Shown: positions 2,364 to 18,471, counted from the stretch's first letter. The stretch is DNA of 25,965 nucleotides from Pseudomonadota bacterium (GCA_039188505.1 JBCCZC010000021.1:1-25965); one strand, 5' to 3'. A program made the numbers and translations. Notes: generated by a model not told the origin, from the sequence alone.

Positions 2364-2457
2364 CCCGACGGCCGCGCGGACGCGCACCCCTGGGGCTTGC
2401 AATGCCCTCCTCGCGTGGCCAGTATTGGCGCGCTCTGCGCTACCCAACGATCAGCCC

Positions 2458-3123
2458 ATGACCGACATCCAGGTATCCCCCGGTTTTGCCACGCCGTTCG
2501 TCGTCCGCCATCACCCGGATCCGACCGCACTCAATACGGAACTCAAGGCGCTCTTTCTGGAGCGCGAGGGAGACCCGCGCTGGGCCGAGAAGACGCCGAC
2601 GCTCACGCTCAAGGTCAAGCTGTTCGAGAGCGAGTTCGACGTCTTCAAGTGGCCGGAACCGTGCGTACAGCAACTCAAGCAGTTCTGCTTCGAGTCGCTC
2701 GGCAAGACCCTGATGCAGGTCAACGGCTGCTCGCCCGAGGACCTCAGCAACCTGCGGATCCACAATCACGCCTGGTTCCATGTGACCCGCCCCGGCGGCT
2801 ACATGGGCACGCATAACCATCCCATGGCCTCCTGGTCCGGGGTCTACTGCGTCGATACGGGCGGTGCGGACGCCGACAACGCCGACAGCGGGGTCATCCG
2901 CTTCCACGACCCGCGGATCTCGGTCACCATGTACATGGACGCCGGCAATAATCACCTGCTGCCGCCGTTCGAGCCCGGCATGCGCAACTATCAGTTCAAA
3001 CCTGGCCAGCTGGTCATCTTTCCGTCGTTCCTGATGCACGAGGTGGCGCCCTTTACCGGAGACGGCACGCGTATCACCGTGGCCTTCAATGCCTGGATCA
3101 AGGACAGCCGGGCCGGTGGCTGA
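2458..3123 (+). CDS. putative 2OG-Fe(II) oxygenase, TIGR02466/PF13759-like
   Basis: ATG at 2458 (the ORF-track frame opens at 2299, but homology starts at MTDIQVSPGF). Motifs HNHPMASWSGVYCV and FPSFLMHEVAPF match the His-x-His...His cupin pattern of the 2OG-FeII_Oxy_5 family. No signal peptide. The 3' end overlaps the next gene. Confidence 0.75.
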   Translation: MTDIQVSPGFATPFVVRHHPDPTALNTELKALFLEREGDPRWAEKTPTLTLKVKLFESEFDVFKWPEPCVQQLKQFCFESLGKTLMQVNGCSPEDLSNLRIHNHAWFHVTRPGGYMGTHNHPMASWSGVYCVDTGGADADNADSGVIRFHDPRISVTMYMDAGNNHLLPPFEPGMRNYQFKPGQLVIFPSFLMHEVAPFTGDGTRITVAFNAWIKDSRAGG

Positions 3124-4384
3124 GACTGCCGACCGGTTCGACGCCGCCTGGGAAGCCGCCCAGGCCGGTGACGCCGATGCGCAGCTCGCGCTCGGGCGCC
3201 ACTACCTGGCGGCGGACGATTTCGGTCGGGCCAGGCGGTGGTTCGGACGTGCGGCGCGCGCCGGCCAGGCCGCCGGCTACACGGAGCTCGCCCTGCTCGA
3301 GCTCCAGGGCCTCGGCATGGCGGAAGACGCCGCGGGCGCGCGGGAGCACTTCATGGCGGGGATCGCCGCGGGCGACGCCCGCGCGCGCTACGAACTGGCG
3401 CTCATCGACTACCGCACCGGCCGTCGGCCCGCAACCGAATGCCTCGAGGCGCTCGCCGAGGCGGCCCGGGGCGGTTACGCGCCGGCGCAACGCGAGGTCG
3501 GTGTGCTCCTGCTCGCCGAAAACGACGTCGCCGCTCGCGGCGCGCTGAAGCTCGCGGCCCGTGCCAACGACATGCTCGCGATCTCGACGCTCCTCTGCCT
3601 CGCCCAGACCGACGGCGACACCGCCCTGGCCGGCGACCTGACACGGCGGGGGCGTGAACTCGGGAGCTACTGCGCCGAACGCTTCGGTACCGAGCCCACC
3701 GGGGCCGTCCTGGACGCCCTCGAAACGCCGCTCACGGCCGCCGCTATCCCGGCTCCGACCGCGGCCGCTGCGTCCGCGCCGGTGCCGGAGCGCCCGCTCG
3801 GTGACGACCGCGTGCGCGTCTACGACGATATGCTCTCGGCGATCGAGTGTCGCTACCTCATCGAGGTCACGGCGCCACAGCTGCGCCCGTCGCACACGGT
3901 GCACCCGGAAACGGGCGAGTCGGTACGCAACGACATGCGCACCAGCTACGGCTACAGCCTCCACCCGCTGCAGGAAGACTTCGTGATCCTTGGAGCGAAA
4001 GCCCGGCTCGCCGCGGAGACCGGGTTTCCGGTCGGCCACGCGGAGCCTTTCGCGCTGCTGCGCTACGAACCCGGGCAGGAATACAAGCCGCACTTTGACT
4101 ACATCGATCCGGCATCAGGGGAGGCAGGCCAGGAGCTGGCCACGCGCGGCCAGCGCGAGGTCACCATCTTCTCCTATCTGACTTCGGTCGCCGGCGGCGG
4201 CGAGACTGTGTTTCCGCGCCTTGATGTTCAGGTGGCCTGCCGGGCGGGTCGGGCCCTGATGTTCCGCAATACGCGCCCGGACGGCGCTCCGGACCCCGAA
4301 AGTCTGCACGCGAGCCTGCCGGTCGAGAGCGGCGAGAAGTGGATTGCCACGCTCTGGATTCGCGGGAGGACGCTCCTCTCATGA
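3089..4384 (+). CDS. Sel1-repeat protein fused to a prolyl 4-hydroxylase-type 2OG-Fe(II) oxygenase domain
   Basis: N-terminal half holds about four Sel1/TPR-like repeats (AQLALGRHYLAADDFGRARRWFGRAARAGQAAGY..., ARYELALIDYRTG..., APAQREVGVLLLAEND). C-terminal P4Hc signature: YKPHFDYID (HxD), GGETVFP, GRALMFRN, SLHASLPVESGEKWIATLW. Alternative GTG start at 3116. Stop TGA 4382-4384 overlaps the next ATG (ATGA). Confidence 0.85.
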   Translation: MPGSRTAGPVAETADRFDAAWEAAQAGDADAQLALGRHYLAADDFGRARRWFGRAARAGQAAGYTELALLELQGLGMAEDAAGAREHFMAGIAAGDARARYELALIDYRTGRRPATECLEALAEAARGGYAPAQREVGVLLLAENDVAARGALKLAARANDMLAISTLLCLAQTDGDTALAGDLTRRGRELGSYCAERFGTEPTGAVLDALETPLTAAAIPAPTAAAASAPVPERPLGDDRVRVYDDMLSAIECRYLIEVTAPQLRPSHTVHPETGESVRNDMRTSYGYSLHPLQEDFVILGAKARLAAETGFPVGHAEPFALLRYEPGQEYKPHFDYIDPASGEAGQELATRGQREVTIFSYLTSVAGGGETVFPRLDVQVACRAGRALMFRNTRPDGAPDPESLHASLPVESGEKWIATLWIRGRTLLS

Positions 4385-4971
4385 TGCAGCTCACGCCCAC
4401 GCGGCGCGGCACCGTCGACGGTCGCCTGGTCCTGGTTTACGACAATCTCGTCTCCCCGGGGGTGCTCGAGGAAATATCCCGGGCCCTCGACGGGGCGGCG
4501 TTCACGCGCAACGAGATCGCCAAACCGGAGACGGCAGATCATCGTCACTGGGCCCACAACATGTCGGTCGAGGCAGCGGGCCAGCTACCGCTCTTCAAGC
4601 CAACGATCCTCGCGGCGCAGCCTTTCTGCCAGGACGGATCGCGCTACCGGCTCTATCGCGCCTACACCAACTACGCATCCTACGGGGACATGCTTTTCAC
4701 CCACACGGACTGCCTACCCGACGCCCGTGAGATCACGGCACTCTGGTTCATCAGCACCGAATGGGATCCCGAGTGGGGCGGTGAGACGCTGTTCTTCAAC
4801 GAGGCGATGGATGCGGAGTTCGTGGCGAGCCCGAGGCCGGGCCGACTCGTCATGTTCGACGGCGCCATTCCTCATTGCGGTCGCCCACCGAACCGGATCT
4901 GCTACCGGCCGCGCTATACCTTTGCCATGAAGCTAGAGCGCCTGCCACCCGAGGAGCCGAAGTCGCCATGA
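4381..4971 (+). CDS. 2OG-Fe(II) oxygenase family protein (P4H-like, 2OG-FeII_Oxy_3-type)
   Basis: Start ATGATG at 4381 is coupled to the upstream stop. Motifs LFTHTDCLPD (HxD), WGGETLFF, GRLVMFDGAIPHCG (distal His) and RPRYTFAMK (2OG-binding Arg). About 196 aa, no signal peptide. Confidence 0.75.
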   Translation: MMQLTPTRRGTVDGRLVLVYDNLVSPGVLEEISRALDGAAFTRNEIAKPETADHRHWAHNMSVEAAGQLPLFKPTILAAQPFCQDGSRYRLYRAYTNYASYGDMLFTHTDCLPDAREITALWFISTEWDPEWGGETLFFNEAMDAEFVASPRPGRLVMFDGAIPHCGRPPNRICYRPRYTFAMKLERLPPEEPKSP

Positions 4972-6215
4972 AGCCGGCCGATGTTCGTCGGCGTTCAGAG
5001 CAGCTCGTTGCGAGCGGCCAGGTCCAGCAGGCGGGGACGCTCATCGCAGACGCGCTGAAGCTGCAACCGTTCGAACCTGATCTCGTGCTCGCGAAGGCGA
5101 ACATCATGCTCGCGGGACGCCAGTACCAGCAGGCGGTCGAGACGCTTGCGGAGCTGATTCGGCGCAAGCCAGACAACCCGGACGCCTTCTTTTTGCTTGG
5201 CAACGCCTACCGGGCGACCCAGCTCGTGACCGAGGCGGCGAAGGCCTATGGGCGCACCCTCGAGCTGGCGCCCGATTACCCGGGCGCTGCCCATTTCCTT
5301 GGCCTCGTCAGCCAGCAGATCGGAGACCTCGACACTGCCGAGTCCGCCTTCCGGGCCGCGTGCGAACAGCGACCGGAACTACCGGTACTCCGCTTCCGCC
5401 TCGGGAGCGTGCAGCACATGCAGGGACGCTATGCCCAAGCGGCAAACTCCTATCGTCAGGCGCTACGGCGCGACGCGACGCACCCACCGACGCTGACCAA
5501 CCTCGGCCTGGCGCTCATCGCGCTCGACGAGGACGCCGAAGCGGTCGAGGTCGCGCGGCAGCAGCTCGCCCACGTCCCGGGCCACACGCTCGCGCTTGCA
5601 AATCTGCTTTACGCGTCCCTCGGCGCTGGCGACAGCGCCACCGTCGCGGAACTGCTCGACGGGACTCTCATCCAAGAAGGCAGGCTCCCGAGCTCGGCCC
5701 TCGATGACTGGGCCGCTGCGCTCGAGGCCCTACCCCGGACGCGGGAGAGCGACGACGACCGGTACACCACGCTCGAATTCCGCATCGAGGAGCAGCCGGC
5801 GTTCCGCGCGATGGGCGATGCCCTCGAGGCCATGGTCGCCGCCCATATCGCTGTGTGCCGCACGCGTACGGCGCATCCCTGGGCAAATCATCTGCCGGAT
5901 GGCTGGACCCTGCGCCTATGGGGGGAGAGCAAGCACGGCGGCGATGAAGAACCGACGCACTGCCACCCGCGGGCCTTCATGAGTGGTCTTGCCTATCTCT
6001 CGATTCCGCCGGGCGCGGGGCCGAACACCGTCGAGTTCGGTATCGGTGATGAGGCGTACGGCGGCCGCGTACCACCGGACTCGCCCCGCATCGAGGTGAA
6101 CGCCGGTTCACTGCTGCTCTTTCCCGCCTACTTCTTCCACCGCACGTCGGCCTTCGCCGGCGAGGGCAACCGCGTGCGCATCGCCTTCGACGTCCTCGCG
6201 CCGACGCGGAGCTAG
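4968..6215 (+). CDS. TPR-repeat protein fused to a PF13759-like 2OG-Fe(II) oxygenase domain
   Basis: ATG 4968 overlaps the previous stop (ATGA). The N-terminal 250 aa is a run of TPRs (LVLAKANIMLAGRQYQQAVETLAELIRRKPDNPDAFFLLGNAYRA..., AAKAYGRTLELAPDYPGAAHFLG..., etc.). The C-terminus THCHPRAFMSGLAYL...LLLFPAYFFHRT is paralogous to the gene at 2458 (THNHPMASWSGVYCV...FPSFLMHEV). Confidence 0.8.
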   Translation: MKPADVRRRSEQLVASGQVQQAGTLIADALKLQPFEPDLVLAKANIMLAGRQYQQAVETLAELIRRKPDNPDAFFLLGNAYRATQLVTEAAKAYGRTLELAPDYPGAAHFLGLVSQQIGDLDTAESAFRAACEQRPELPVLRFRLGSVQHMQGRYAQAANSYRQALRRDATHPPTLTNLGLALIALDEDAEAVEVARQQLAHVPGHTLALANLLYASLGAGDSATVAELLDGTLIQEGRLPSSALDDWAAALEALPRTRESDDDRYTTLEFRIEEQPAFRAMGDALEAMVAAHIAVCRTRTAHPWANHLPDGWTLRLWGESKHGGDEEPTHCHPRAFMSGLAYLSIPPGAGPNTVEFGIGDEAYGGRVPPDSPRIEVNAGSLLLFPAYFFHRTSAFAGEGNRVRIAFDVLAPTRS

Positions 6216-8709: not shown

Positions 8710-10224
8710 CTAGCCTGATGCCTGGGCCGGCGCTGCTGCCGGCTCGGGAACCAGGCAGTCGTAGTACTCGATGCCGAAATCGATGAATCGACCCGACTCG
8801 CTGTCGCCGATGCCGGCCAGCGCAAACCGCTGTCCGACGGGCGCCGGCAGGTCGTCCGCCTCGCCGGAATCGTGCAGCTGTTCGTACTGTTTCCGATTGA
8901 TGTCGATGCCGCCCGCGAGCGCGTCCGCCATGCCGATTCGCCCCGCTGCCTCGCGCCACTCCGGTCGCACGATGCAGGGGATGGCCTCCGCGGCATCACC
9001 GCTGCCGTATCCCATCAGCAACACCTCCCGACCGACCAGCTCTTCGCCGGTGCCGGCGGCCTCCTCGAAGCCGGCCGCAACCCAGGCCGGCAGAGCCGCC
9101 GTGTAGAGGTTGCCGACGTCACCCATCGACTCTGCGCCCAGTCCGAAGCTTTGCGCCAGCATCGCCTTCGCCTCGGGTGTCCCGCGGAAAGCCTTGAGCG
9201 CACCCATCGCCAGCGGATAGACCTCCTCGTCGATTTGCCGCGATTCGATTATCGGCGTGAAATCGGGGCTTCGCTTCAGCTCTGCGGCGCAGTCCTCGGG
9301 GTCGACGCCGGCCGTTTCGCAGGCGGCCCGGAACAGTTCGCGGTCGGCCCGCGAGCCAACGGAAAGGGCCATGAGATAGGACAGCAGCAAGCCCGACTCC
9401 GGCATGCGCCGGTAGGGACGGTGGAAGAAGGCTGCGCGGAGGTCGCGGAGGTAACCGGCCGCGTGGCGGGTTCGACGGATCAGCATGTCGCGCACCGCGT
9501 GGAGCGTGGCGTCGAGGTAGCAGGTCGTCGAGTACTTTCCGTTGAAGACGGGAAAGTCCCGGATCTGCCCGAGCACGCGCTGCTGCTCGCCCAGCATGCG
9601 CCCGATCGGCTTGCGAAAGTCCACGCGCCGGTCGTCGGATGCGCTGCCCGCCGCCTCCAGCCGCAGCTCGAGCAGCTTCGGGTTCTTCTCGACGAGCATC
9701 GCGACGGCCCCTGCGCCCTGCGTCGGCTCACCGGAGCTGCCGCGGGCGTACTCCGCCACGTCACCGCTCACGACGATCGCGAGGGGATCACCCGGTTCGA
9801 ACGCGAGGAACCTGACCGCGTTCTTGAGCCCGTAGACGCCGCCGAGGCACGCGTGCTTGAACTCGGGCACCTCGCAGTAGCGGGAGATCGGCGGACGGCC
9901 GAGCCTTGCGAGCGCGCGGTTCACGAGCCCCTTCACGACCACCGTGCCGGCGGCGTTGTCGGTGCTCGATTCTGTTCCGAGGGCCAGAAAGCGGATCCGA
10001 CCGGGATCGACGTCGTAGCGTTCGATGAGCTCGACCACCGCGGACGCTGCCATCGTGTAGACGTTCTCGGTCGATCCGCGGACGCGGAAGCTGGTGCCGA
10101 CGACGTTTCGGATCTTGTCCCACGGCTGGTCGTACCAGTCACACCACGCTTCGAGGTCGACCCGGTAAGGCGGCAGATAGACCGCGGCGCCGCTGATGCC
10201 AATGGATTGCTGGATGCTGCTCAT
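8710..10224 (-). CDS. hydroxymethylglutaryl-CoA synthase family protein (thiolase-fold condensing enzyme), about 504 aa long form
   Basis: Start chosen at ATG 10224 (MSSIQQSIGISGAAVYLPPY), preceded by AAGGAGAG 5 nt upstream. HMGS-like blocks: LGTESSTDNAAG, active-site Cys in EFKHACLGGVYGL, VVSGDVAEYARG...TQGAGAVAMLVE. The C-terminal about 150 aa extends beyond the classical HMGS core. Confidence 0.85.
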   Translation of the reverse strand: MSSIQQSIGISGAAVYLPPYRVDLEAWCDWYDQPWDKIRNVVGTSFRVRGSTENVYTMAASAVVELIERYDVDPGRIRFLALGTESSTDNAAGTVVVKGLVNRALARLGRPPISRYCEVPEFKHACLGGVYGLKNAVRFLAFEPGDPLAIVVSGDVAEYARGSSGEPTQGAGAVAMLVEKNPKLLELRLEAAGSASDDRRVDFRKPIGRMLGEQQRVLGQIRDFPVFNGKYSTTCYLDATLHAVRDMLIRRTRHAAGYLRDLRAAFFHRPYRRMPESGLLLSYLMALSVGSRADRELFRAACETAGVDPEDCAAELKRSPDFTPIIESRQIDEEVYPLAMGALKAFRGTPEAKAMLAQSFGLGAESMGDVGNLYTAALPAWVAAGFEEAAGTGEELVGREVLLMGYGSGDAAEAIPCIVRPEWREAAGRIGMADALAGGIDINRKQYEQLHDSGEADDLPAPVGQRFALAGIGDSESGRFIDFGIEYYDCLVPEPAAAPAQASG

Positions 10225-10312
10225 GCCTCTCCTTACCGGCGCCGGTCCGCGCCGAGCTGCTGTCACCGCATCGTAAGGGGGCGTCGCGCGCGCCGCAACG
10301 CCGCCGCCGCCG

Positions 10313-10318
10313 TATACT
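10313..10318 (+). promoter_or_regulatory. candidate -10 hexamer TATACT upstream of the 10343 gene
   Basis: ccgTATACTcaggggctcacGGGAGGAGtcacgATG. The hexamer lies 24 nt upstream of the ATG. No convincing -35. Confidence 0.3.
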
Positions 10319-10342
10319 CAGGGGCTCACGGGAGGAGTCACG

Positions 10343-10594
10343 ATGACGGACAAGACCATCAAGCGAGTCCAGACGGGCATGCGCATCGAACAGCGCCTGC
10401 TCAAGGTGATGAAGGGCCTGGCTGAGTACCTTGATCTGTCGCTCGGTGACCTGACCGAAGGCATCGTGCTGCATGCGCTCGACGGGAAGGACCCGTTCGG
10501 CGAGTCGACTCGGGCAAAGATCGAACAGCTACGGGCCGTCTACGACCTCGACCTGCGAGCCGAGGACAGCCACCGCTTGCACGAGGACCCATGA
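10343..10594 (+). CDS. small ribbon-helix-helix-like (CopG/Arc/MetJ-type) putative DNA-binding protein
   Basis: Strong RBS GGGAGGAG 5 nt before the ATG. 83 aa. N-terminal KRVQTGMRIEQRLLKVMKGLAEYLDLSLGDLTEGIVLHAL fits the beta-strand plus two helices of RHH repressors. Sits directly upstream of the SPFH operon. Family assignment comes from pattern only. Confidence 0.5.
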   Translation: MTDKTIKRVQTGMRIEQRLLKVMKGLAEYLDLSLGDLTEGIVLHALDGKDPFGESTRAKIEQLRAVYDLDLRAEDSHRLHEDP

Positions 10595-10624
10595 CCAGGG
10601 GCAGCCGCCGGACGCGGGCGCCAC

Positions 10625-10640
10625 TGCTATACTTTTTTGT
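10625..10640 (+). promoter_or_regulatory. extended -10 element TGcTATACT followed by a T6 run (promoter for the SPFH operon and/or terminator tail of the RHH gene)
   Basis: cacTGCTATACTTTTTTgtcgg at 10622-10643. TGn-TATACT is a textbook extended -10. A T6 run is rare in this 67% GC sequence, and an imperfect GC-rich palindrome (gcagccgccggacgcgggcgccactgc) lies just 5'. The two roles cannot be separated from sequence alone. Confidence 0.35.
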
Positions 10641-10709
10641 CGGTGCGGAGCACCAGTCCGCCGAACGTCGGAACTGGCCGCCCATCCAATGCGCGGGAGG
10701 AGAACGACA

Positions 10710-11729
10710 TTGATCTGGGATGCAGTCAAGAAGCAGCTTCGTTCGGTCATCGAGTGGGAAAATCCGGATCACTCGGTGCTGTTCGAGCTCTGGTCCGAGC
10801 GCGGCGACGAGATCAAGGATGCCTCGCAGCTCATCGTCAAGCCCGGCCAGGGGGTGGTCTTCCTCTACGAGGGCAAGATCCAGGGGGTGATGACCGACCC
10901 GGGCACCTACGATCTCCAGACGGCCAATGTACCGTTCGTCACGACGCTCGAGAAGTACATGCAGGCCTTCGAGAGCGAGCACAAGGTGGGCATCTATTTC
11001 TTCTGGCAGACCGAGTTTCTGAACCAGAAGTGGGGCACGGTCAGCCCGATCAAGTACCAGGATCCGGTCTATGACTTCCCGGTCGCCCTGCGCGCGTTCG
11101 GCAATTTCAGCTTCCGCCTGAGCGAGCCCGAGCCGTTCTTCGTGAACCTGCTGGGATCCCGGGAACGCTTCCTTGTCGACCAGCTGCGGCAAACCGTGGC
11201 GAACCGTATTCAGCAGCCGCTGACCGACCTCATGGCGGAATCAGGCTTCAGCTACGCCGAGATCGATCGCAACCGCGACGAGCTGGCAGCGGCTCTCGCC
11301 CAGAAGCTAGCGCCGGAGTTCGAGCGCCTGGGCCTCGAGATGACGGATTTCCGCATCGAGTCCACGAGCTTCGACGACGCCACCAACGACCGGATCGCCC
11401 GCATCGCGGACATCACCGCGGAAGCGCGGGCCGCAGAGAAGGCCGGCCTTGACTACGCTCAGTTGCAGCAGCTCGAGGCGCTCCGGGAGGCGGCTCGCAA
11501 CGAGGGCGGCGCGGCCGGCGCCGGCGTCGGCATCGGCGCGGGGATCGGCCTGGGCCAGACCTTTGCCCAGTCCATGGCACCCGGAGCCGCCGGCGGCGGC
11601 GGCCAGGGCGCAGCGCCTGCGGCCGATATCGAGTCGAGGCTCGAGCGGTTGAAGTCGCTCCTCGACAAGGGCCTCATCAGCGACGCCGACTACCAGGCCA
11701 AGAAGGACGCGATCCTCAGCGAGCTATGA
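10710..11729 (+). CDS. SPFH (Band-7-like, PF13421-type) domain protein with C-terminal SHOCT domain
   Basis: TTG start at 10710, preceded by GGGAGGAG with a 9-nt spacer, giving an N-terminus (L/M)IWDAVKKQLRSVIEWENPD typical of this family (MGIFDKIK...). Alternative ATG at 10689. A Gly/Ala-rich linker precedes the C-terminus LERLKSLLDKGLISDADYQAKKDAILSEL, which is a SHOCT motif. Stop overlaps the next ATG (ATGA 11726-11729). Confidence 0.85.
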   Translation: MIWDAVKKQLRSVIEWENPDHSVLFELWSERGDEIKDASQLIVKPGQGVVFLYEGKIQGVMTDPGTYDLQTANVPFVTTLEKYMQAFESEHKVGIYFFWQTEFLNQKWGTVSPIKYQDPVYDFPVALRAFGNFSFRLSEPEPFFVNLLGSRERFLVDQLRQTVANRIQQPLTDLMAESGFSYAEIDRNRDELAAALAQKLAPEFERLGLEMTDFRIESTSFDDATNDRIARIADITAEARAAEKAGLDYAQLQQLEALREAARNEGGAAGAGVGIGAGIGLGQTFAQSMAPGAAGGGGQGAAPAADIESRLERLKSLLDKGLISDADYQAKKDAILSEL

Positions 11730-12331
11730 GCCGAAGCTTCACCTGCCCCTCGTGCGGCGCCCCCCTCGAGGTCGAGCATCGATTCTCGAGGGTGGTGATC
11801 TGTGGCTACTGCAACCAGAGCGCGAACATCACCTCGGGCGGCCTCGATCCCGCGGGCAAGGGCGCGAAGCTCGTCGGCGCGCCCTCCCGGCTCAGCATCG
11901 GCGCTACCGGGCGGATCGACGAAACCGCCTTCCGGACCCTGGGCCGCCTGCGCTACGGCTATGACGGCGGCTTCTGGGATGAGTGGTTTCTCGCGCTAAG
12001 CGACGATCGTCAGCTCTGGCTCCAGGAGGATGACGGCACGTTCACGGCTTTCGAAAAAACACCGATCACCGCCGCCCTCCCCGAGTTCGACGACGTTAGG
12101 GTCGGCCAGACCATCACGGTCAATGGCCGCTCAATCTTCATCGTCGAGCGCACGGAGGCGATGATCCTCGGCGGTGAGGGCGAGCTCTACTTCAACGTGA
12201 CCCCGGGCGCCGATGTCTTCAGCGTCGACGGCTCGGCCGACGGCGAAACCTGGAGCGTCGAGTACCAGCCGGACGAGATCACCCTATCCCGCGGCACGCC
12301 CGTCGCCCACGCGGCGCTCGAGCTCGACTGA
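11726..12331 (+). CDS. zinc-ribbon + DUF4178 domain protein
   Basis: N-terminal CPSCGAPL...CGYCNQ zinc ribbon. Then DUF4178-type beta-rich region (GRLRYGYDGGFWDEWFLALSDDRQLWLQEDDGTF...). Paralogous to the N-terminal half of the next gene. Translationally coupled on both sides. Confidence 0.8.
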   Translation: MSRSFTCPSCGAPLEVEHRFSRVVICGYCNQSANITSGGLDPAGKGAKLVGAPSRLSIGATGRIDETAFRTLGRLRYGYDGGFWDEWFLALSDDRQLWLQEDDGTFTAFEKTPITAALPEFDDVRVGQTITVNGRSIFIVERTEAMILGGEGELYFNVTPGADVFSVDGSADGETWSVEYQPDEITLSRGTPVAHAALELD

Positions 12332-12333
12332 CC

Positions 12334-13821
12334 ATGGAGCTGCGCGACAAGGTCAGCGAGCTGCCGCCGGAAAAAGTCGTTGCCTACGTCAAGCGCCAGC
12401 TTTCGCTCGGCAAGATCCAACCGGTTCTCGGGCTGTTTCCCGAGATCCTCGAGTCTCACGCCGACTACGCGGAAGCACTCGAGCAGATCCACCAGCGAGC
12501 CCTGAAGAAAGAGGCGATGCTGGCCGAGACACAGCCAACGGAGCTCGACGTTTCGCAGACGACCTGCCCCGGCTGTGGCGCGGTCCTGCATCGCGCCCGG
12601 CCCGACGCCCAGGCCATCGCCTGCAGCTACTGCGGGACGCGCTTCATGCCTGCGGACCCGGCAGGAACCGCGGTGAAGACCCTGAACCCCGAGCACTACC
12701 GGCCGCGCTCGTTTCTACGCCTGGGCATGGTCGGGAGAATGGGCGAGCATCCCTGCCAGGTGGTCGGGCGGATGGTCTGGTCCGGGCGTTGCCGGGAGTG
12801 GGATAGCGAAGATCGGTCCTGGGAGTCCAACCCCTGGACCTACGAGGAATGGCTGCTGCTGACGGAGAACCGTCAGTTCTTCTACCTTTGCCACGACGAC
12901 GAAGGGCTCAGTGTCGCCACCGAATTCACGCCGTCGCAGCCGAATTTCCCCGGTCGGCAGGATCGCAAGATGACGCTTGAGGCGGGCCGCCAGAGGACGG
13001 TGGACGAACACGGCGAATACGACCTGCGCTACTTCGAGGGCGAGTTTGGCTGGGTGCCGCAGGTGGGCGAACCGATCGCGACATCGGAGTACTCCTCGGG
13101 CAAGGCGCTCCTGTCGGCGGAGGCACGCCTGCATCCCGAATCCCGGGAGATCGTCGAGCTGGAGTTTTTCCGGACCATTCCCTACACGCCGAAGCGGCTG
13201 TTCCGGGCCTTCGACCGAGACCAGGAGCTGGCGGAACTCGTGCGACGGAAGCACGTGGCGGGCCAGTACCGCCGCTGGCGCTGGGCGAGCTTCGCGACGG
13301 CGACCCTGCTGGGCATCCTCGCCATCGTGCTCGGCGGCGCCGGCGACCCGGTCTACAGCGAGACCTACGACTTCAGTGCCTTCGGCGAAGACGGCATAGT
13401 TGCCGGCCCCTTCGAGCTCAGCAAGGCCGGACGCCCCCACCGGCTGGCCCTGAGCGCCAGCATCGGGGACAACAGCTGGGCCTGGATCGGCGCGGAGCTC
13501 CTCGATACGGAGCGCAACAGCATCAACGCCATGGCCGGCGACTTCTGGCGCGAGTCCGGCTACGACGATGGACACTGGTCGGAATCGGACGTCAGGGAGG
13601 AGCAGCATTTCCGCCTGACCGAGCCGGGACGCTATTTCGTCCGGATGCAGCTCGAGGCGGGCACCGCGGGGACCGGCAGGGTCAGCCTCCAGGTCTATGA
13701 GAACACGATCCTCGGACGCTACTATGTGGTGAGCGCGGTCATCGCACTGGTGCTGGGGCTCCTGCTCCTGCGCGGCGTTCGCACCGACGACCTCCTGCGA
13801 GGCCTGCCGACAACAGCATGA
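12334..13821 (+). CDS. membrane protein with zinc ribbon, DUF4178-like domains and two TM helices
   Basis: Starts 3 nt after the previous stop. Has CPGCGAVL...CSYCGTRF and a DUF4178-like segment (VGRMVWSGRCREWDSEDRSWESNPWTYEEWLLLTENRQFFYL). TM helices WASFATATLLGILAIVLGGAG and YYVVSAVIALVLGLLLL bracket an about 130-aa domain. Stop overlaps the next ATG (ATGA 13818-13821). Confidence 0.8.
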   Translation: MELRDKVSELPPEKVVAYVKRQLSLGKIQPVLGLFPEILESHADYAEALEQIHQRALKKEAMLAETQPTELDVSQTTCPGCGAVLHRARPDAQAIACSYCGTRFMPADPAGTAVKTLNPEHYRPRSFLRLGMVGRMGEHPCQVVGRMVWSGRCREWDSEDRSWESNPWTYEEWLLLTENRQFFYLCHDDEGLSVATEFTPSQPNFPGRQDRKMTLEAGRQRTVDEHGEYDLRYFEGEFGWVPQVGEPIATSEYSSGKALLSAEARLHPESREIVELEFFRTIPYTPKRLFRAFDRDQELAELVRRKHVAGQYRRWRWASFATATLLGILAIVLGGAGDPVYSETYDFSAFGEDGIVAGPFELSKAGRPHRLALSASIGDNSWAWIGAELLDTERNSINAMAGDFWRESGYDDGHWSESDVREEQHFRLTEPGRYFVRMQLEAGTAGTGRVSLQVYENTILGRYYVVSAVIALVLGLLLLRGVRTDDLLRGLPTTA

Positions 13822-14057
13822 AACCCCTGACCCAGATCCTGATTGCCCTCGTCCTCATCGTGCTGATCGCGGTCCCCGTCCTGGGAGCGCGAAGCGGTTG
13901 GGGACTGGGAACCCAGGCGGATCAGAAGATCATTGCCGATTCCGATTCCTTCTGCCCGACCACCATGCGGGCTCCGGATGGCACCTGCCGGCGAACGGTT
14001 CGCAGCTATTACTTCGGGCGCAGCTTCATCGGCGGCGGCCCGCGTACGGGAAAATGA
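13818..14057 (+). CDS. small single-TM membrane protein, 79 aa, uncharacterised
   Basis: ATGA overlap with both the upstream gene (13818) and the downstream gene (14054). N-terminal TM LTQILIALVLIVLIAVPVLG, then CPTTMRAPDGTCRR. No family recognised. Kept mainly because of the coupling and position inside the operon. Confidence 0.5.
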   Translation: MKPLTQILIALVLIVLIAVPVLGARSGWGLGTQADQKIIADSDSFCPTTMRAPDGTCRRTVRSYYFGRSFIGGGPRTGK

Positions 14058-14362
14058 GCAAGCGGGGAGTGAGCATGAGAAACGCAACGTTGTCCGGCCT
14101 GGCGCTGATGGCCTCTAGCACCGCGGTCCAGGCCGCGGGGGATTTGACGGCCGACGCACTCCTTGCGGGCATCGTGTCGACCGTGATCTACAGCCTGCTC
14201 GGCATCGGTATGGCTATGCTCGGCTTCAAGATGATCGACTGGATGACGCCGGGCAACCTCCGTGAGCAGATCGCCGAGCACGAGAACCGCGCACTCGGGA
14301 CAGTCGTCGGCGCGACGATCCTCGGCATCTGCATCATCATCGCCGCCGTCCTCGTCTCCTGA
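14054..14362 (+). CDS. DUF350 family membrane protein
   Basis: ATG 14054 is coupled to the upstream stop. Alternative ATG 14075 has a better SD (GGGGAG) and gives signal-like MRNATLSGLALMASSTAVQAAG. Two-TM DUF350 pattern: LLAGIVSTVIYSLLGIGMAMLGFKMIDWMTPGNL...NRALGTVVGATILGICIIIAAVLVS. Confidence 0.75.
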   Translation: MSKRGVSMRNATLSGLALMASSTAVQAAGDLTADALLAGIVSTVIYSLLGIGMAMLGFKMIDWMTPGNLREQIAEHENRALGTVVGATILGICIIIAAVLVS

Positions 14363-14505
14363 GCCAGCCCGAACCGCCCTCCGCGGGCCCGCTGAGCGCC
14401 GCTGACAGCGGCCTCCTGGTCGGGAGCCTGCTGATCGTCTCCGCCTGCACGCTCGTCTACGAGCTGCTGATCAGTGCGCTGTCGTCGTATTTTCTCGGCT
14501 CGAGC

Positions 14506-15888
14506 GTGCTCCATTTCTCCATCACGATCGGGCTGTTCCTGTTCTTCATGGGCGTGGGATCCTTCCTGTCGCGCTTCTTCCATTACGACCTGCTCGACCG
14601 CTACGTCCTGATCGAAATCCTCATCGGCCTCATCGGTGGTCTGAGTGGTGTGCTGCTCTACGCGGCCTACGCGACGACCGAGCACTACTACCTGGTCGCT
14701 CTGCTCCTGATCGCCGGAATCAGTGTTCTCGCGGGCCTCGAGATTCCGCTCGTGACGCGCCTGCTGCAGGACGCCCGGGGCCTACGCCGATCGCTTTCGG
14801 ACGTCTTGGCCTTCGACTACCTCGGCGCGCTTTTCGCGGCGCTGCTGTTCCCCCTCGTACTCGTCCCCTACGTCGGCCTGCAGCGGACGGCCTTCGCCGT
14901 CGGCCTCGTGAATCTCGGCGTCGCGGGCGTCCTGCTTGCGAGGCTGTCGCCACGCCTGGGGCAGGCCGCGCCGCTGCGGCTGCTCGCCGTCGGCGTGGGT
15001 GTGATCCTCGCGCTGGGCCTGGTCTACACGAGCTCGCTCACCCGTTGGTTCGAGCAATACCTGTACCAGGACGAGATCGTCCACGTCGCCCAGACGCCCT
15101 ATCAGCGCATCGTTCTGACGCAGCGAAAGAACGACCTGCGCCTGTTCCTCAACGGCAGCCTCCAGTTCTCGAGCATCGACGAGTACCGCTACCACGAACC
15201 GCTGGTTCATCTCGCCGCCGGCGCCGCCCGGCGCCTCGATGAGGTGCTGGTGCTGGGCGGTGGCGACGGCCTGGCCGTCCGTGAGCTGCTGCGCTACCCC
15301 GAGGTGGGCCGCATCACGGTCGTGGATATCGACCCGGCCGTGACCGAGCTGGCGTCGACCCACGCCATGCTGCGCTCCCTCAACGCCGGCGCGCTGCAGG
15401 ACCCGCGGGTCTCCATCGTTCACCAGGACGCCTTCGAGTATCTCGAGGGTGCGTCGACGCGCTACAACCTCGTCGTTGCCGATCTGCCGGATCCATCAAC
15501 GCTGGATCTCGGCAAGCTCTACACGGTCACCTTCTACCGCCTCCTGCAAGCCCGCCTCGCGGCCGACGGCGTCTTCGTGACCCAGGCCTCGTCTCCGTTC
15601 TTCGCCCGCAAAGCCTATTGGTGCATCGGCGCGACGCTCGGCGAGGTCTTCGACGAGGTCGTTCCGGTCCAGAGCTACGTCCCCGCCTTCGGCCTCTGGG
15701 GATTCCACATCGCCAGCCAGGCCTCACTGGCTTTCGAAGCCCGCCCGCTCCCGTCGGACCTCCGCTTCGCCGAGGCTGGCTATGCAGGTCGCGCCCGCCA
15801 CCTGCCTCCCGACGTCGGCCCGCTGGATGTCGACGTCAACCGGCTCGAGAACCAGGTCCTGGTGCAGTACTACAGCACGGCAAACTGA
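14506..15888 (+). CDS. speE: polytopic-membrane polyamine aminopropyltransferase (spermidine/spermine synthase family) with N-terminal multi-TM domain
   Basis: C-terminal SpeE fold (VLVLGGGDGLAVRELLRYP, ITVVDIDPAV, ADLPDPS). N-terminal TM domain homologous to membrane-anchored SpeE (IEILIGLIGGLSGVLLYAAYA; LEIPLVTRLLQ). The conserved N-terminal helix (SACTLVYELLISALSSYF) is encoded upstream of the first GTG/ATG at 14506. The frame is open back to a TGA at 14263, with no ATG/GTG/TTG in between. The true start is therefore upstream and non-canonical; see findings. Confidence 0.9.
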   Translation: MLHFSITIGLFLFFMGVGSFLSRFFHYDLLDRYVLIEILIGLIGGLSGVLLYAAYATTEHYYLVALLLIAGISVLAGLEIPLVTRLLQDARGLRRSLSDVLAFDYLGALFAALLFPLVLVPYVGLQRTAFAVGLVNLGVAGVLLARLSPRLGQAAPLRLLAVGVGVILALGLVYTSSLTRWFEQYLYQDEIVHVAQTPYQRIVLTQRKNDLRLFLNGSLQFSSIDEYRYHEPLVHLAAGAARRLDEVLVLGGGDGLAVRELLRYPEVGRITVVDIDPAVTELASTHAMLRSLNAGALQDPRVSIVHQDAFEYLEGASTRYNLVVADLPDPSTLDLGKLYTVTFYRLLQARLAADGVFVTQASSPFFARKAYWCIGATLGEVFDEVVPVQSYVPAFGLWGFHIASQASLAFEARPLPSDLRFAEAGYAGRARHLPPDVGPLDVDVNRLENQVLVQYYSTAN

Positions 15889-15999
15889 ACGTGTTGTCAT
15901 CCGGTGCCGACAGGCCACCCTGGCAAGACCCCGCGCTGCTTCTACGTTTGCGCAACGAGAGCCAGCGAGACCACCAGCTCGCCGAAAGGCACTCCGCTG

Positions 16000-16113
16000 C
16001 TACGCCTCTGAAAACAAAGCTAGCGAATCTGAGCGGCTTTGAGTGGCGCGAGCCAGTCAAAGAAGCGATACGAGCCTTCCCTCTGGTCCTCGCCCCGCCC
16101 GCAGCGCGGAGCA
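16000..16113 (+). repeat. copy A of an about 110-nt repeated structured element (hairpin with GNRA-type loop)
   Basis: ctacgcCtctgaaaacaaagctagcgaAtctgagcgg [ctttgagtggc-gcga-gccagtcaaag] aagaagcgatacgagccttccc...cgcc [second GC hairpin] ggagca. About 85% identical to copy B outside the hairpin. Inside the hairpin the sequence differs but the pairing is preserved. Confidence 0.6.
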
Positions 16114-16167
16114 ACACTACCCGTCCCTTTTGAATCGTAAACCCTTGTTGTTCTTTGATTCGGATCG

Positions 16168-16195
16168 TTGCACCCCCTGAACCCGCTGCTATAAC
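16168..16195 (+). promoter_or_regulatory. near-consensus sigma70 promoter (TTGCAC-N16-TGcTATAAC) for the 16226 ORF
   Basis: TTGCAC at 16168-16173, 16-nt spacer ending in TGc, TATAAC at 16190-16195. Sits in an AT-richer stretch. SD GGGGGAG lies 7 nt before ATG 16226. Confidence 0.5.
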
Positions 16196-16225
16196 TGAAC
16201 ACAAGGAACACTCGGGGGAGTTACC

Positions 16226-16468
16226 ATGGAAGACCGACGCCACGATCAACGCAGGCTCAACGTCCACGCCCTCAAGCGAGAGCTCAATGCCGATCAGCTC
16301 GCAACGCTGAACAGCCTGGAATCCTTCGGCTGGGAGCTCAAGTTCGTCCGCAAGCCGCTCTTCCAGGACCCGGTGCCCATCGTCTTCGACGACTCCCGCG
16401 AACACTTCGCGGTCCTCGAAGCCGACGGCACCCTGAACGAGGAGCCGGGGATCACGATCAGGGATTAG
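16226..16468 (+). CDS. small hypothetical protein, 80 aa
   Basis: Strong SD (GGGGGAG) and promoter upstream. Hydrophilic. Sequence MEDRRHDQRRLNVHALKRELNADQLATLNSLESFGWELKFVRKPLFQDPVPIVFDDSREHFAVLEADGTLNEEPGITIRD. No family recognised. It is the only ORF in a lower-GC islet flanked by the two repeat copies. Confidence 0.55.
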   Translation: MEDRRHDQRRLNVHALKRELNADQLATLNSLESFGWELKFVRKPLFQDPVPIVFDDSREHFAVLEADGTLNEEPGITIRD

Positions 16469-16657
16469 TGGAGCTCGCCGTGACTCTCGGACCGGGTCAG
16501 CCCAGAGCGAGCGCCGCCTGGCCGTTCACATCCAGACCGGAATGACCGACACGGTGCTCCCTGGCCCTGGCAGAAGCGCACCGCTCCCAGGCGTTTGCAG
16601 CTCGAATAGTGGCGACACGAGCCCGCACGAACGCCTGCCACAGCCCCTCCGCACATA

Positions 16658-16697
16658 CGCTTCAACGCTTCAACGCTTCAACGCCTCTACGCTTCTG
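16658..16697 (+). repeat. short tandem array of 8-nt units (cgcttcaa x3, then degenerate cgcctcta, cgcttctg) leading into repeat copy B
   Basis: acgcttcaacgcttcaacgcttcaacgcctctacgcttctg, read directly from the sequence. The 5' end of the structured repeat begins inside the degenerate units. Confidence 0.6.
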
Positions 16698-16797
16698 AAA
16701 ACAAAGCTAGCGAGTCTGAGCGGTTTTTCGAGCACAGCTCGAAAAGAAGCGATACGAGCCTTCCCCTTGGTCTTCGCCCGGCTTGCCGGGCGGAGCA
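16688..16797 (+). repeat. copy B of the about 110-nt repeated structured element
   Basis: ctacgcTtctgaaaacaaagctagcgaGtctgagcgg t[ttttcgagc-acag-gctcgaaaa]g aagaagcgatacgagccttccc...cgcc[cggc-ttg-ccggg]cggagca. Same orientation as copy A, 688 nt apart. Lies between the convergent 3' ends of the 16226 ORF and the PilZ-domain gene. Confidence 0.6.
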
Positions 16798-16815
16798 GCG
16801 ATACGAGGCCACCAA

Positions 16816-18471
16816 TTAGTCTCGCGCATACCCCATCAGCACGACTTCCGAGGTCTTCTCGAGCTTCTCGCTCGTGGCGATGGGGCCGCAGAAGCTCTTG
16901 CGGCTGTCGCCAACGCAGATCGCGGTCGGTCCGGCGATCGCGGACATGCCCGCGGTCGCGAAGCGGTCCTTGCCATTGCCGTCCCCGTCCCGGAAGGGCC
17001 GGTAGCCCAGGGCCCGGTGCGGCACCGCGGCGTCGCCGCTCTGGGTCGCGAGCAGCGCGGCCGGAACCAGGTCGCGGCCCACCACACCGATGCCGAGCTC
17101 GATCTCGCGGACGTCGATGGCATTGAGCCAGCGCACGATGCCCATCATCCAGAGCGGAGTCCGCTCGAACAGCGAGTCCGCGCAGAGCACCACGAGTTCC
17201 CCGACGCGAACCTGGAGCCGTTCGACGTCGACAAGGCGCAGGCGATAGCCGCCGAGGCTCTGGTTGAGCACCTCCGCCTCGTAGGCCGGCGGCCGTCCCT
17301 CGACCGTGTCCTGGCCGCCGAAGCGGGGGCGGTCGCGGCTCGCCGCCTCGACGAATGACGGATCGCCATACTCCCGGAGGAAGCGCGTAAACGGTCCCTC
17401 GTCTGCAAGCATGAAGTGGGCCGCGTGCAGCCCCACGAAGAGGCGCACCATGTGATGGCCCTGCAGCCGCTGGAAGGACCGCTTGCGTCGAATCCCCCAG
17501 GTTGCCAGGAGCTGGTTGATCAGATCCCGGTCGATGATCAGTGGCTTGCCGTCGTTATCCTTGAAGGACAGCTCACGCAACTGCTCCTGGGCCGTTTCCT
17601 CGACCTCGAGCAGCCAGTTCCGGAGTTCGCGTACGTCGAAGACGAGGTCGAACTTGGCCGGGACCTCGCCATCCGTGATCAGGACCGGGGGATCGTCGCC
17701 CTCGACCTCGATTTCGAAGAGTCCGGCCGCTGCCTTGTCGAGCGACACGGCGGCATTGACCCGGATCCGACGGGCCCAGAGCGCGGCGGCCTGGGCCAGC
17801 GCCCGCATCGCGCGCTGTCCGAGCCGGCTAGGATCGCTGATGCCGAAGAGCGCGATTCGCCGGAACAGATCATCGATCGACGCCGAGGTGGCGAGGCACA
17901 GATCGGACTCGATCACCCGTTCGTGCATGTCGTTCTGGCGAGCAAACGCGTAGAGCACGTTGATCTCGTTCCACACCTGCGGGGCGGCCTGCTGGTAGAG
18001 CATGCCCTGGCGATAGAGCATCTGTTCAAGGCAGGCGAGCGCGGCATGCAGGCACCGGCCGACGGCGCGCTTCTGCATAAAGCCCACGGAAGTGGAGGTG
18101 CCGACCATGTCGTAGGCCGCGAGCCGGTAGCCCATCGACAGTTCGCGGAAGAACTGCACGGCCACGCGACCGACGCGATCACGCTTCTCGTCGAGGGGGA
18201 AGGCCGTATCGCGATAGTGCCGATCAAGGACACCCACGACGGTGAGTACCGGCGAGATGGTGTGGTCGAGCATCTCCAGGCGCTGCTTCTGGGGAATCTC
18301 CGCCTGGTTCATCTCCTGCAGTGCGAGCAGCAGCTGATTACCGGCGGCGGTCATGTTCCCGAGCGGCAGCGATTCGAGCCACGCCAGGTAGCGCTTGACC
18401 TGCGCCAGCCGTGAACTCTTCTCCGGCCGGCCCTGTTCCGGGCGATGCAGGCTGAGTTTGACTTTCTTCAT
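16816..18471 (-). CDS. PilZ-domain protein (putative c-di-GMP effector) with a large uncharacterised N-terminal region
   Basis: 551 aa. Near the C-terminus, RDRPR (RxxxR) is followed 22 residues later by NQSLGG ((D/N)xSxxG). Together these form the bipartite c-di-GMP-binding signature of PilZ domains. A beta-rich segment follows (YRLRLVDVERLQVRVGELVVLCADSL...). The about 370 N-terminal residues and about 80 C-terminal residues are unassigned. Confidence 0.7.
   Translation of the reverse strand: MKKVKLSLHRPEQGRPEKSSRLAQVKRYLAWLESLPLGNMTAAGNQLLLALQEMNQAEIPQKQRLEMLDHTISPVLTVVGVLDRHYRDTAFPLDEKRDRVGRVAVQFFRELSMGYRLAAYDMVGTSTSVGFMQKRAVGRCLHAALACLEQMLYRQGMLYQQAAPQVWNEINVLYAFARQNDMHERVIESDLCLATSASIDDLFRRIALFGISDPSRLGQRAMRALAQAAALWARRIRVNAAVSLDKAAAGLFEIEVEGDDPPVLITDGEVPAKFDLVFDVRELRNWLLEVEETAQEQLRELSFKDNDGKPLIIDRDLINQLLATWGIRRKRSFQRLQGHHMVRLFVGLHAAHFMLADEGPFTRFLREYGDPSFVEAASRDRPRFGGQDTVEGRPPAYEAEVLNQSLGGYRLRLVDVERLQVRVGELVVLCADSLFERTPLWMMGIVRWLNAIDVREIELGIGVVGRDLVPAALLATQSGDAAVPHRALGYRPFRDGDGNGKDRFATAGMSAIAGPTAICVGDSRKSFCGPIATSEKLEKTSEVVLMGYARD

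Follow-up and report, generated by a model that had tools for sequence, protein, structure and literature searches.

An SPFH-associated operon coding for a predicted membrane-bound aminopropyltransferase and a small protein with an invariant Gly-Lys C-terminus

Introduction

Bacterial operons in which a seven-transmembrane (7TM) spermine synthase is encoded together with DUF350 (YjfL) and DUF4178 proteins have been described computationally (Ravi et al. 2024, PMC11237479). Here, we analyze a related operon from a 25,965-nt contig (the window), which belongs to an NCBI metagenome-assembled genome (MAG) labelled Pseudomonadota bacterium. Six genes on the + strand (10710-15888) code for an SPFH protein, two zinc-ribbon DUF4178 proteins (D1 and D2), a 79-aa protein with a single transmembrane (TM) helix, a DUF350 protein and a 7-TM polyamine aminopropyltransferase (SpeE). 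With some reservation, we favor the reading that this one coupled operon encodes an SPFH-scaffolded aminopropyl-transfer complex at the cell envelope, which would depend on decarboxylated S-adenosylmethionine (dcSAM). The most informative feature of the operon is the invariant Gly-Lys C-terminus of the small protein, which was overlooked in an earlier note on this DNA.

The published operons consist of a PspA-CesT/Tir pair, the 7TM spermine synthase, YjfL/DUF350, a Ctha_1186 lipoprotein, DUF4178 and a ribbon-helix-helix (RHH) protein, as in the SO_3765 region of Shewanella oneidensis. The RHH gene is attached only sometimes. Some polyamine-linked variants have a Band-7+2TM+SHOCT protein for the PspA dyad and are located beside AdoMet decarboxylase (AdoMetDC) and polyamine oxidase (Ravi et al. 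2024, PMC11237479). The supplement of that paper gives the Shewanella example only and no explicit operon of Band-7 with SpeE. The window operon is a variant of this PspA/Band-7-associated 7TM-SpeE system. It has contiguous genes for 7TM-Spermine_synth, YjfL/DUF350, DUF4178 and a small extracytoplasmic low-complexity protein just 5' of the DUF350 gene, which is matched to the "Ctha_1186 + low-complexity" lipoprotein by position only. It differs in being devoid of PspA and CesT, in having two Zn-ribbon DUF4178 paralogs (one with two TM helices and a periplasmic domain), and in having a DUF350 protein with 2 rather than 8 TM helices. A profile hidden Markov model (HMM) for PspA, built from related loci, had no match in the window, so that the operon was not assigned to the PSP system. 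In the six PspA-type loci of our sample, DUF4178 lacks the Zn ribbon, unlike in the window. The arrangement had been called uncharacterised. This applies in the biochemical sense, but it is not undescribed, since both the PspA version and the Band-7+2TM+SHOCT replacement are in Ravi et al. 2024 (PMC11237479).

The earlier comparison with yjfIJKLMC of Escherichia coli is accurate: this operon codes for the PspA-like YjfJ, the DUF350 protein YjfL, the DUF1190 protein YjfM, and YjfC. In PMC11762307, which cites Pederick et al. 2023, both YjfC and YgiC are described as peptide-spermidine ligases with an unknown physiological peptide. The likeness to the window lies in DUF350 and in a polyamine-conjugating enzyme that is encoded directly after a membrane-anchored protein with a Gly-rich tail; the PspA-family protein is shared with the PspA version of the system. 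In tolC-ygiBC, the polyamine-conjugating enzyme also directly follows such a protein. However, the E. coli systems use ATP-grasp ligation rather than aminopropyl transfer, their partner belongs to DUF1190 rather than to the family with the Gly-Lys (GK) tail, and they lack DUF4178, SPFH and SpeE.

In Bacillus subtilis, YdjI/SamI, a soluble SPFH protein, depends on YdjH and on the Zn-ribbon membrane protein YdjG for its recruitment to the membrane (PMC8581546; bioRxiv 10.64898/2026.02.06.704340). The pspA-ydjGHI (samGHI) operon resembles that of the window in combining a TM-less SPFH protein with a Zn-ribbon membrane protein, but it also has PspA and a TPM-domain protein, and it is devoid of a polyamine enzyme. 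YdjI, which has a C-terminal Zn finger instead of SHOCT, is likened to the window protein at the level of the SPFH superfamily.

For the catalytic domain of SpeE, the best solved relatives are ACL5 and Thermus-type aminopropyltransferases (thermospermine synthase 6bq2, aminopropyltransferases 1uir and 3anx, and 7xif; E 1e-35 to 1e-32). They have the D-L-x-D-P acceptor motif, YHE and GGG(D/E)G in common with SpeE (GGGEG in two solved proteins, GGGDG here). They are soluble and lack the 7-TM domain, and the invariant Arg of DEYRYHE is found only in the window family. Fusions of the major facilitator superfamily (MFS) with a spermidine synthase (SpdSyn)-like domain reportedly have AdoMetDC and DUF350 as neighbors, and a non-putrescine acceptor is said to have been proposed for them. 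SpeE differs from these in being of the 7-TM PRK03612 type (NF002956, 585 bits; NF037959, 61 bits). The fungal enzyme NHMT (AN4663) has the same architecture as SpeE, combining a 7TM domain with one that resembles spermidine synthase. Its substrates are secreted proteins, which are methylated at the N-terminus once the signal peptide has been cleaved off (bioRxiv 10.1101/2022.10.03.510680). This terminus is modified in an extracytoplasmic compartment, but NHMT uses S-adenosylmethionine (SAM) and has Ile in place of Asp. Its 7TM domain is reported to be fungus-specific, so that the likeness to SpeE is an analogy.

A conserved core and its accessories

The six genes follow each other at distances of -4, +2, -4, -4 and -4 nt. 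Gene calling was simple. The coordinates given previously are right, as are the 4-nt ATGA overlaps at 11726, 13818 and 14054, and the tight coupling is borne out; only the gap between D1 and D2 had been put at 3 nt and is actually 2 nt (12331 -> 12334). By strand, by overlapping or near-abutting frames and by recurring order, the run is classed as one translationally coupled operon. HMM searches recovered all proposed assignments (SPFH/Band_7_1 with SHOCT, DUF4178, DUF350, SpeE). The TM counts from a simple hydropathy scan also agree: two in D2, one in the 79-aa protein, two in the DUF350 protein and seven in SpeE.

A scan anchored on SpeE, with one genome per GTDB species, yielded 470 relatives, of which the 80 best (39-52% identity) were analyzed. 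Neighbors were counted among these 80 loci with iterated HMMs on six-frame open reading frames (ORFs). The loci are from more than ten phyla and include Gammaproteobacteria, Bdellovibrionales, Myxococcota, Bacteroidota, Campylobacterota, Melainabacteria-type Cyanobacteria, Clostridia, Planctomycetota, Nitrospirota, Chloroflexota, Elusimicrobiota and bacteria of the candidate phyla radiation (CPR). DUF350 adjoins SpeE in 69 of them, and DUF4178 (one to three copies) is found in 65. AdoMetDC is encoded within 3 kb in 30 loci and a flavin amine oxidase in 20, while PspA (6/80) and SPFH (5/80) adjoin in a minority. A gene of the Orn/DAP/Arg-decarboxylase family lies near SpeE in four Campylobacterota loci. 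The linkage of DUF4178, DUF350 and SpeE is seen in 64 of the 80 loci, and in 60 of the 80 the GK tail is also present.

The complete six-gene order is identical in ten operons, namely that of the window and those of loci L001, L003, L085-L088, L006, L018 and L020. Their flanking genes differ, and their SPFH proteins share 59-76% identity. AdoMetDC is encoded directly upstream of two of these operons (L003, L088). Chance adjacency of the six genes is ruled out by this synteny, and the co-conservation on which the earlier proposal depended is thus found both for the full order and for the smaller linkage group.

On the basis of the SpeE-anchored counts and of look-ups anchored on SPFH (see below), core and accessory genes can be told apart. 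The ancient core consists of the DUF4178 protein(s), the small GK-tail protein, DUF350 and 7TM-SpeE. SPFH and PspA are alternative accessories to this one core. The earlier note had placed SPFH in a scaffold slot instead of PspA. The alternative positions beside the same core are in line with this, but SPFH does not define the system.

Two of the SPFH-type operons show peculiarities. In L088, a QueC/Asn-synthase-like gene (9448-10125) is inserted between DUF350 and SpeE. In L086 (5469-6872 and about 9846-10199), an NfeD gene precedes the SPFH gene, the D2 homolog has an in-frame stop, and the GK-tail ORF was missed by automatic gene calling.

The aminopropyltransferase, the Gly-Lys tail and the acceptor

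SpeE (14359..15888, +) is of the PRK03612 type. It matches PF01564 (E 2e-36) and, with residues 8-507 covering model positions 10-516, NF002956 (584.8 bits, cut-off 472). In an alignment of 83 SpeE sequences, the motifs GGGDG, DLPDP and YHE are invariant. D303, D375, D378, Y278, H279 and E280 are found in 83/83 sequences, and together with D323, D325, D357 and Q269 they make up a set that is invariant or near-invariant (82-83/83). All signatures of an aminopropyltransferase are kept (the dcSAM-selecting acid, the DxxDP Asp, Y-H-E), which agrees with the previous assignment to the SpeE family. R277 in DEYRYHE is family-specific and also invariant; solved relatives have I or Y at this position. 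Because D303, D375, D378, Q269 and YHE are invariant, and because NHMT has Ile at the position of D303, the predicted chemistry of SpeE is aminopropyl transfer.

The mean number of Lys plus Arg residues per loop, over the 83 sequences, alternates along the 7-TM domain (1.67 at the N-terminus, then 0.00, 1.87, 0.10, 3.11, 0.27 and 1.64). Given this alternation, the seven helices, and a catalytic domain that begins directly after TM7 (WFEQ...), the N-terminus would be cytoplasmic, and the catalytic domain would lie on the outer side of the cytoplasmic membrane. The globular domain of D2 is also placed outside, in agreement with an outward topology of SpeE. Four acidic residues are located in the TM bundle. 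Three of them (E35, E128 and D153) show little or no variation, and the fourth, E86, is kept in 76/83 sequences. Four intramembrane acids are unusual for a mere anchor, and the bundle may thus handle a cationic ligand. The DUF350 protein (YjfL-type; 14054..14362, +; ATGA overlap) has a signal-like N-terminus and one 2-TM repeat (TM segments 31-49 and 83-101). It matches PF03994 (E 3e-14, 53.6 bits, cut-off 26) at profile positions 2-66 of 133, corresponding to one of two repeats.

The 79-aa protein (13818..14057, +; ATGA overlap) has a conserved C-terminal tail, RSYYFGRSFIGGGPRTGK, which ends in Gly-Lys. No Pfam model matches it. In family alignments, a short basic N-terminus is followed by one TM helix, a variable low-complexity stretch and the tail R-S-x-x-G-G-G-x-x-x-G-K, after which comes the stop; beyond this layout, the relatives have little in common. 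All of the 51 sequences that were extracted automatically have Gly at -2 and Lys at -1 (51/51), while Gly is found 47 times at -6 and 42 times at -7. Of the 64 loci that hold both DUF4178 and DUF350, 60 contain a GK-tail frame within the module, compared to 2 of 4905 background reading frames outside modules. All ten SPFH-type operons (10/10) have this ORF. The Gly-rich segment that precedes the Gly-Lys end is probably flexible.

In a Clostridiales MAG (L045, 321-1454), a single protein runs from DUF4178 through one TM helix and a ~190-aa domain to the GK tail. Judged by its domain content, this fusion is a functional link between DUF4178 and the small-protein family. It also bears on topology. 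The cytoplasmic location predicted for DUF4178 follows from D1, in which a ribbon is present and a signal peptide is missing. With the tail fused to DUF4178 and a single TM helix, the GK tail would be extracytoplasmic.

Three types of acceptor can be considered. A free tri- or diamine, leading to a thermospermine-like product, is a reasonable possibility that stays short of probable. The terminal Lys of the small protein is a possible but rather unlikely acceptor. What remains falls to something else, e.g., a lipid, or to a tail that acts as a pseudo-substrate. In the explicit version of the second option, which we put forward tentatively and regard as doubtful, the 7-TM enzyme would aminopropylate the epsilon-amine of the C-terminal Lys at the outer face, once or repeatedly. 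The dcSAM would cross via the acidic 7-TM domain or DUF350, and the product would be a protein-tethered polyamine-like tail. The proposal builds on the recurrence of the GK tail in the loci against its rarity in background frames, on its invariant Gly-Lys end and Gly-rich segment, on the L045 fusion, on the positive-inside pattern, and on the invariant Arg beside the catalytic Tyr. If true, bacteria would have a system for the aminopropylation of a protein, and the long-sought non-putrescine acceptor of membrane SpdSyn-like enzymes would have a name.

There is a parallel in E. coli K-12. The DUF1190 proteins YjfM (L089, 8388-9026) and YgiB (L090, 1745-2416) are encoded directly upstream of the ligases YjfC and YgiC. 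They have Ser/Arg/Gly-rich tails with a Gly-Gly end (...GHWGG and ...RSMGG, respectively). YjfM and YgiB could be the peptide substrates of YjfC and YgiC. It counts against this pairing that YjfM and YgiB look periplasmic, whereas YjfC and YgiC look cytoplasmic. If the Lys-aminopropylation proposal is true, YjfM/YjfC and YgiB/YgiC could be its ATP-grasp counterpart, with a Gly-Gly tail being ligated to spermidine.

The strongest competitor, with a fair claim but not an even one, is that SpeE is a conventional synthase of a free polyamine (spermidine, thermospermine or longer), that the other four proteins regulate or export the product, and that the Gly-Lys tail is not a substrate. The catalytic domain is nearest to thermospermine synthase and to triamine/agmatine aminopropyltransferases, and both substrate-binding Asp residues are invariant. 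Classical polyamine genes (AdoMetDC, flavin amine oxidase and the decarboxylase of the Campylobacterota loci) are among the neighbors. Norspermidine has been shown to be made by thermospermine synthase together with an oxidase (PMC11531321). This explanation, however, does not account for an obligatory partnership with the Gly-Lys protein, DUF350 and DUF4178 across phyla, nor for the family-specific R277. Membrane SpdSyn-like fusions reportedly fail to complement speE, and their hosts are said to be devoid of spermidine.

Zinc ribbons and the SPFH scaffold

D1 (11726..12331, +; 201 aa; ATGA overlap with the SPFH gene) is a predicted cytoplasmic protein without TM segments, in which DUF4178 (PF13785, E 1e-11, 45 bits, cut-off 25) is located behind a four-Cys Zn ribbon. 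D2 (12334..13821, +; 495 aa) has a helical N-terminus, Zn ribbon, DUF4178, TM1, a periplasmic beta-sandwich and TM2. An AlphaFold model (pLDDT 85) has the same order, with a helical bundle at the start. The two genes had been proposed to code for DUF4178 paralogs. For D1, this follows from the profile match. D2 has no direct Pfam match and was assigned by its paralogy to D1 (BLASTP 3e-10 over ribbon and DUF4178) and by its homologs, which carry PF13785.

The periplasmic domain of D2 was also considered as a third DUF4178 copy. This was rejected, as the profile-profile probability is 7.6% and only a 12-residue GYDxGxWxE motif is in common. The motif, GYD(G/D)G(F/H)W(D/S)E, is rich in aromatic and acidic residues and occurs at residues 77-88 of D1, in the cytoplasmic DUF4178, and at residues 408-419 of D2, in the periplasmic domain. 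It may be a binding site for a cation or a polyamine, or a chance similarity.

The SPFH gene (10710..11729, +) has a TTG start at 10710, with GGGAGGAG located 8 nt upstream, and its product is identical to NCBI protein P0001. The protein consists of a Band_7_1 domain (PF13421, E 6e-43, 147 bits, cut-off 24), a Gly/Ala-rich linker and a C-terminal SHOCT (E 7e-8, 32.3 bits, cut-off 27). It is soluble, having no TM segment. Sequence searches against PDB gave no usable match for SPFH, D1 or D2.

Twelve SPFH homologs were looked up. Six are in the six-gene order (L001, L003, L085-L088) and six are elsewhere. Outside the operon, the SPFH-SHOCT gene is usually followed by a gene for a multi-Zn-ribbon protein of ~220-240 aa (L004, L091, L093, L094; PF13453), the first ribbon of which resembles those of D1 and D2. 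As such, SPFH-SHOCT and the multi-Zn-ribbon protein represent a widespread two-gene unit. Within the SpeE-anchored sample, the ribbon co-varies with the scaffold: DUF4178 has a Zn ribbon in 5/5 SPFH-type loci, in 48/58 loci without an adjacent scaffold and in 0/6 PspA-type loci.

Compared with the YdjI/SamI case, the window has a TM-less SPFH protein, and its Zn-ribbon proteins, which co-vary with SPFH, are candidate partners. Based on the non-operon pairs of SPFH and multi-ribbon protein, on the co-variation (5/5 versus 0/6) and on the B. subtilis precedent, we propose by analogy that the SPFH oligomer docks onto the ribbons of D1 and D2. The SPFH-SHOCT protein would then be an accessory sub-membrane scaffold. 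The membrane-stress role suggested earlier has a basis in the association with SPFH or PspA, and none beyond that association.

Alternatively, the SPFH gene, like the RHH gene further upstream, might be a mere neighbor that is independent of DUF4178, DUF350 and SpeE. It adjoins in just 5/80 SpeE-anchored loci, and 6/12 homologs are elsewhere, including that of L002, which at 62% identity is just as near as operon-borne homologs (59% for that of L003). We nevertheless regard this as unlikely for SPFH. In ten operons with unrelated surroundings, the gene is kept directly upstream in the same order, overlapping by 4 nt or separated by short gaps, at 59-76% identity. The co-variation of the Zn ribbon with SPFH also speaks against it.

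The favored reading, an aminopropyl-transfer complex at the envelope, can be assembled from these parts. A soluble SPFH oligomer would attach to the inner leaflet via the Zn ribbons that D1 and D2 carry N-terminally, mirroring the recruitment of YdjI/SamI by the Zn-ribbon membrane protein YdjG. D2 would cross the membrane and show its PPC-like beta-sandwich outside, where the catalytic domain of SpeE and the Gly-Lys tail would likewise be located. The 7-TM domain, with its four conserved intramembrane acids (76-83/83), might conduct a cationic ligand, either dcSAM or a polyamine. The product would be a cationic aminopropylated species at the envelope.

Several points weigh against this model. 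The topology was derived from the positive-inside rule and a simple hydropathy scan. An outward-facing enzyme needs dcSAM outside the cytoplasm, and we know of no such route. The window is devoid of AdoMetDC, PspA and amine oxidase. Since 48 of the 58 loci without an adjoining SPFH gene have a Zn-ribbon DUF4178, the link to SPFH is facultative. Only the 80 nearest of the 470 relatives are covered, several genera (Corallococcus, Granulosicoccaceae) are over-represented, which inflates the counts, and the family HMMs were built from the very loci that were scored. Every member of the operon is known from computation alone.

Membrane SpdSyn-like enzymes with DUF350 and DUF4178 neighbors occur in hundreds of species, with at least 470 species genomes in this one scan (among them myxobacteria, Bacteroidota and Campylobacterota). 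A similar arrangement has been reported from mycobacteria. The window variant offers two handles, a flotillin-like scaffold that is apparently docked via Zn ribbons, and a Gly-Lys partner that is a possible substrate or plug. If either of them holds, the polyamine/envelope-stress puzzle becomes a direct question for mass spectrometry, and the peptide substrate of the E. coli peptide-spermidine ligases may be explained as well.

The start codon of the SpeE gene

The start codon assignment of SpeE requires attention. The frame has no ATG, GTG or TTG between the upstream in-frame stop and a GTG at 14506. Starting from this GTG would delete the conserved TM1, and it was rejected as a start. A CTG at 14359 overlaps the DUF350 stop codon (cTGA), as had already been proposed, and the related locus L001 has TTGA at that exact position. 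Because there is no canonical start before TM1, and because the CTG is found where L001 has TTGA, SpeE is probably translated by coupling from CTG 14359.

One might suspect that the gene is defective for want of a canonical start, and that the operon is decaying in this MAG. An exact look-up in a protein collection found neither the CTG-start nor the GTG-14506 version of SpeE; the DUF350 protein starting at 14054 was also not present. Decay is nonetheless improbable. The frame is open and full-length, with 585 bits over model positions 10-516, the CTG is exactly at the coupled start position, and all catalytic residues are intact. The notion that SpeE might instead be a SAM-dependent methyltransferase for the terminus of secreted proteins, which the shared architecture with fungal NHMT and the predicted outside location of the catalytic domain bring to mind, is highly improbable and was discarded, given that the GxG(D/E)G position is Ile in NHMT and the dcSAM-selecting Asp of GGGDG in 83/83 sequences here (criterion from bioRxiv 10.1101/2022.10.03.510680), with AdoMetDC linked in 30/80 loci.

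Neighboring genes and further features of the window

An 83-aa RHH-like protein is encoded at 10343..10594 (+), 115 nt upstream of the SPFH gene. The gene has its own Shine-Dalgarno sequence. The window protein has no Pfam match, but its family is real and conserved (807 representative clusters). Matches of the family to PF13467 (RHH_4) are weak (22/33 members, best E 1e-4). The family has the core motif ERVQTGVRxEKRLLKVLKGLAEYLDxSLGDLLEGIVLHAFEGK. An HMM search found no homolog in 84 related loci, so that the gene was not counted as a component of the module. The Shine-Dalgarno sequence and, at the family level, the weak RHH_4 similarity agree with the earlier note, but its suggestion of an operon regulator is unsupported, given this absence. 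The RHH-like gene is probably a mere neighbor.

A consensus scan of 10100-16900 for promoters and terminators called no sigma-70 promoter and no terminator. By direct reading, TATACT hexamers are found at 10313-10318 and, as the extended -10-like element TGcTATACT, at 10625..10633 (+), between the RHH-like and SPFH genes. The latter element, which was not called by the two-hexamer scan, is a possible operon promoter. An Rfam scan of the whole window gave zero matches.

The flanks contain hslO, pyk, der, bamB, hisS, rodZ and rlmN-like genes and look like a gammaproteobacterial chromosome. Four consecutive genes with a 2-oxoglutarate/Fe(II) (2OG-Fe(II)) oxygenase domain, one of them fused to TPR repeats, are located at 2299-6215. 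On the - strand, the gene that separates the operon from der (16816-18471) codes for a protein of 551 aa, for which the sole match is a weak one to PilZ (E 0.014).

Downstream of the operon, a direct repeat of ~125 nt is present at 15995-16120 and 16682-16804, with 82-89% identity, a spacing of ~685 nt and no Rfam match. An 80-aa ORF without a Pfam match (16226-16468, +) lies between the two copies. The repeat could be an element similar to repetitive extragenic palindromes or miniature inverted-repeat transposable elements (REP/MITE-like), or it could code for a small RNA.

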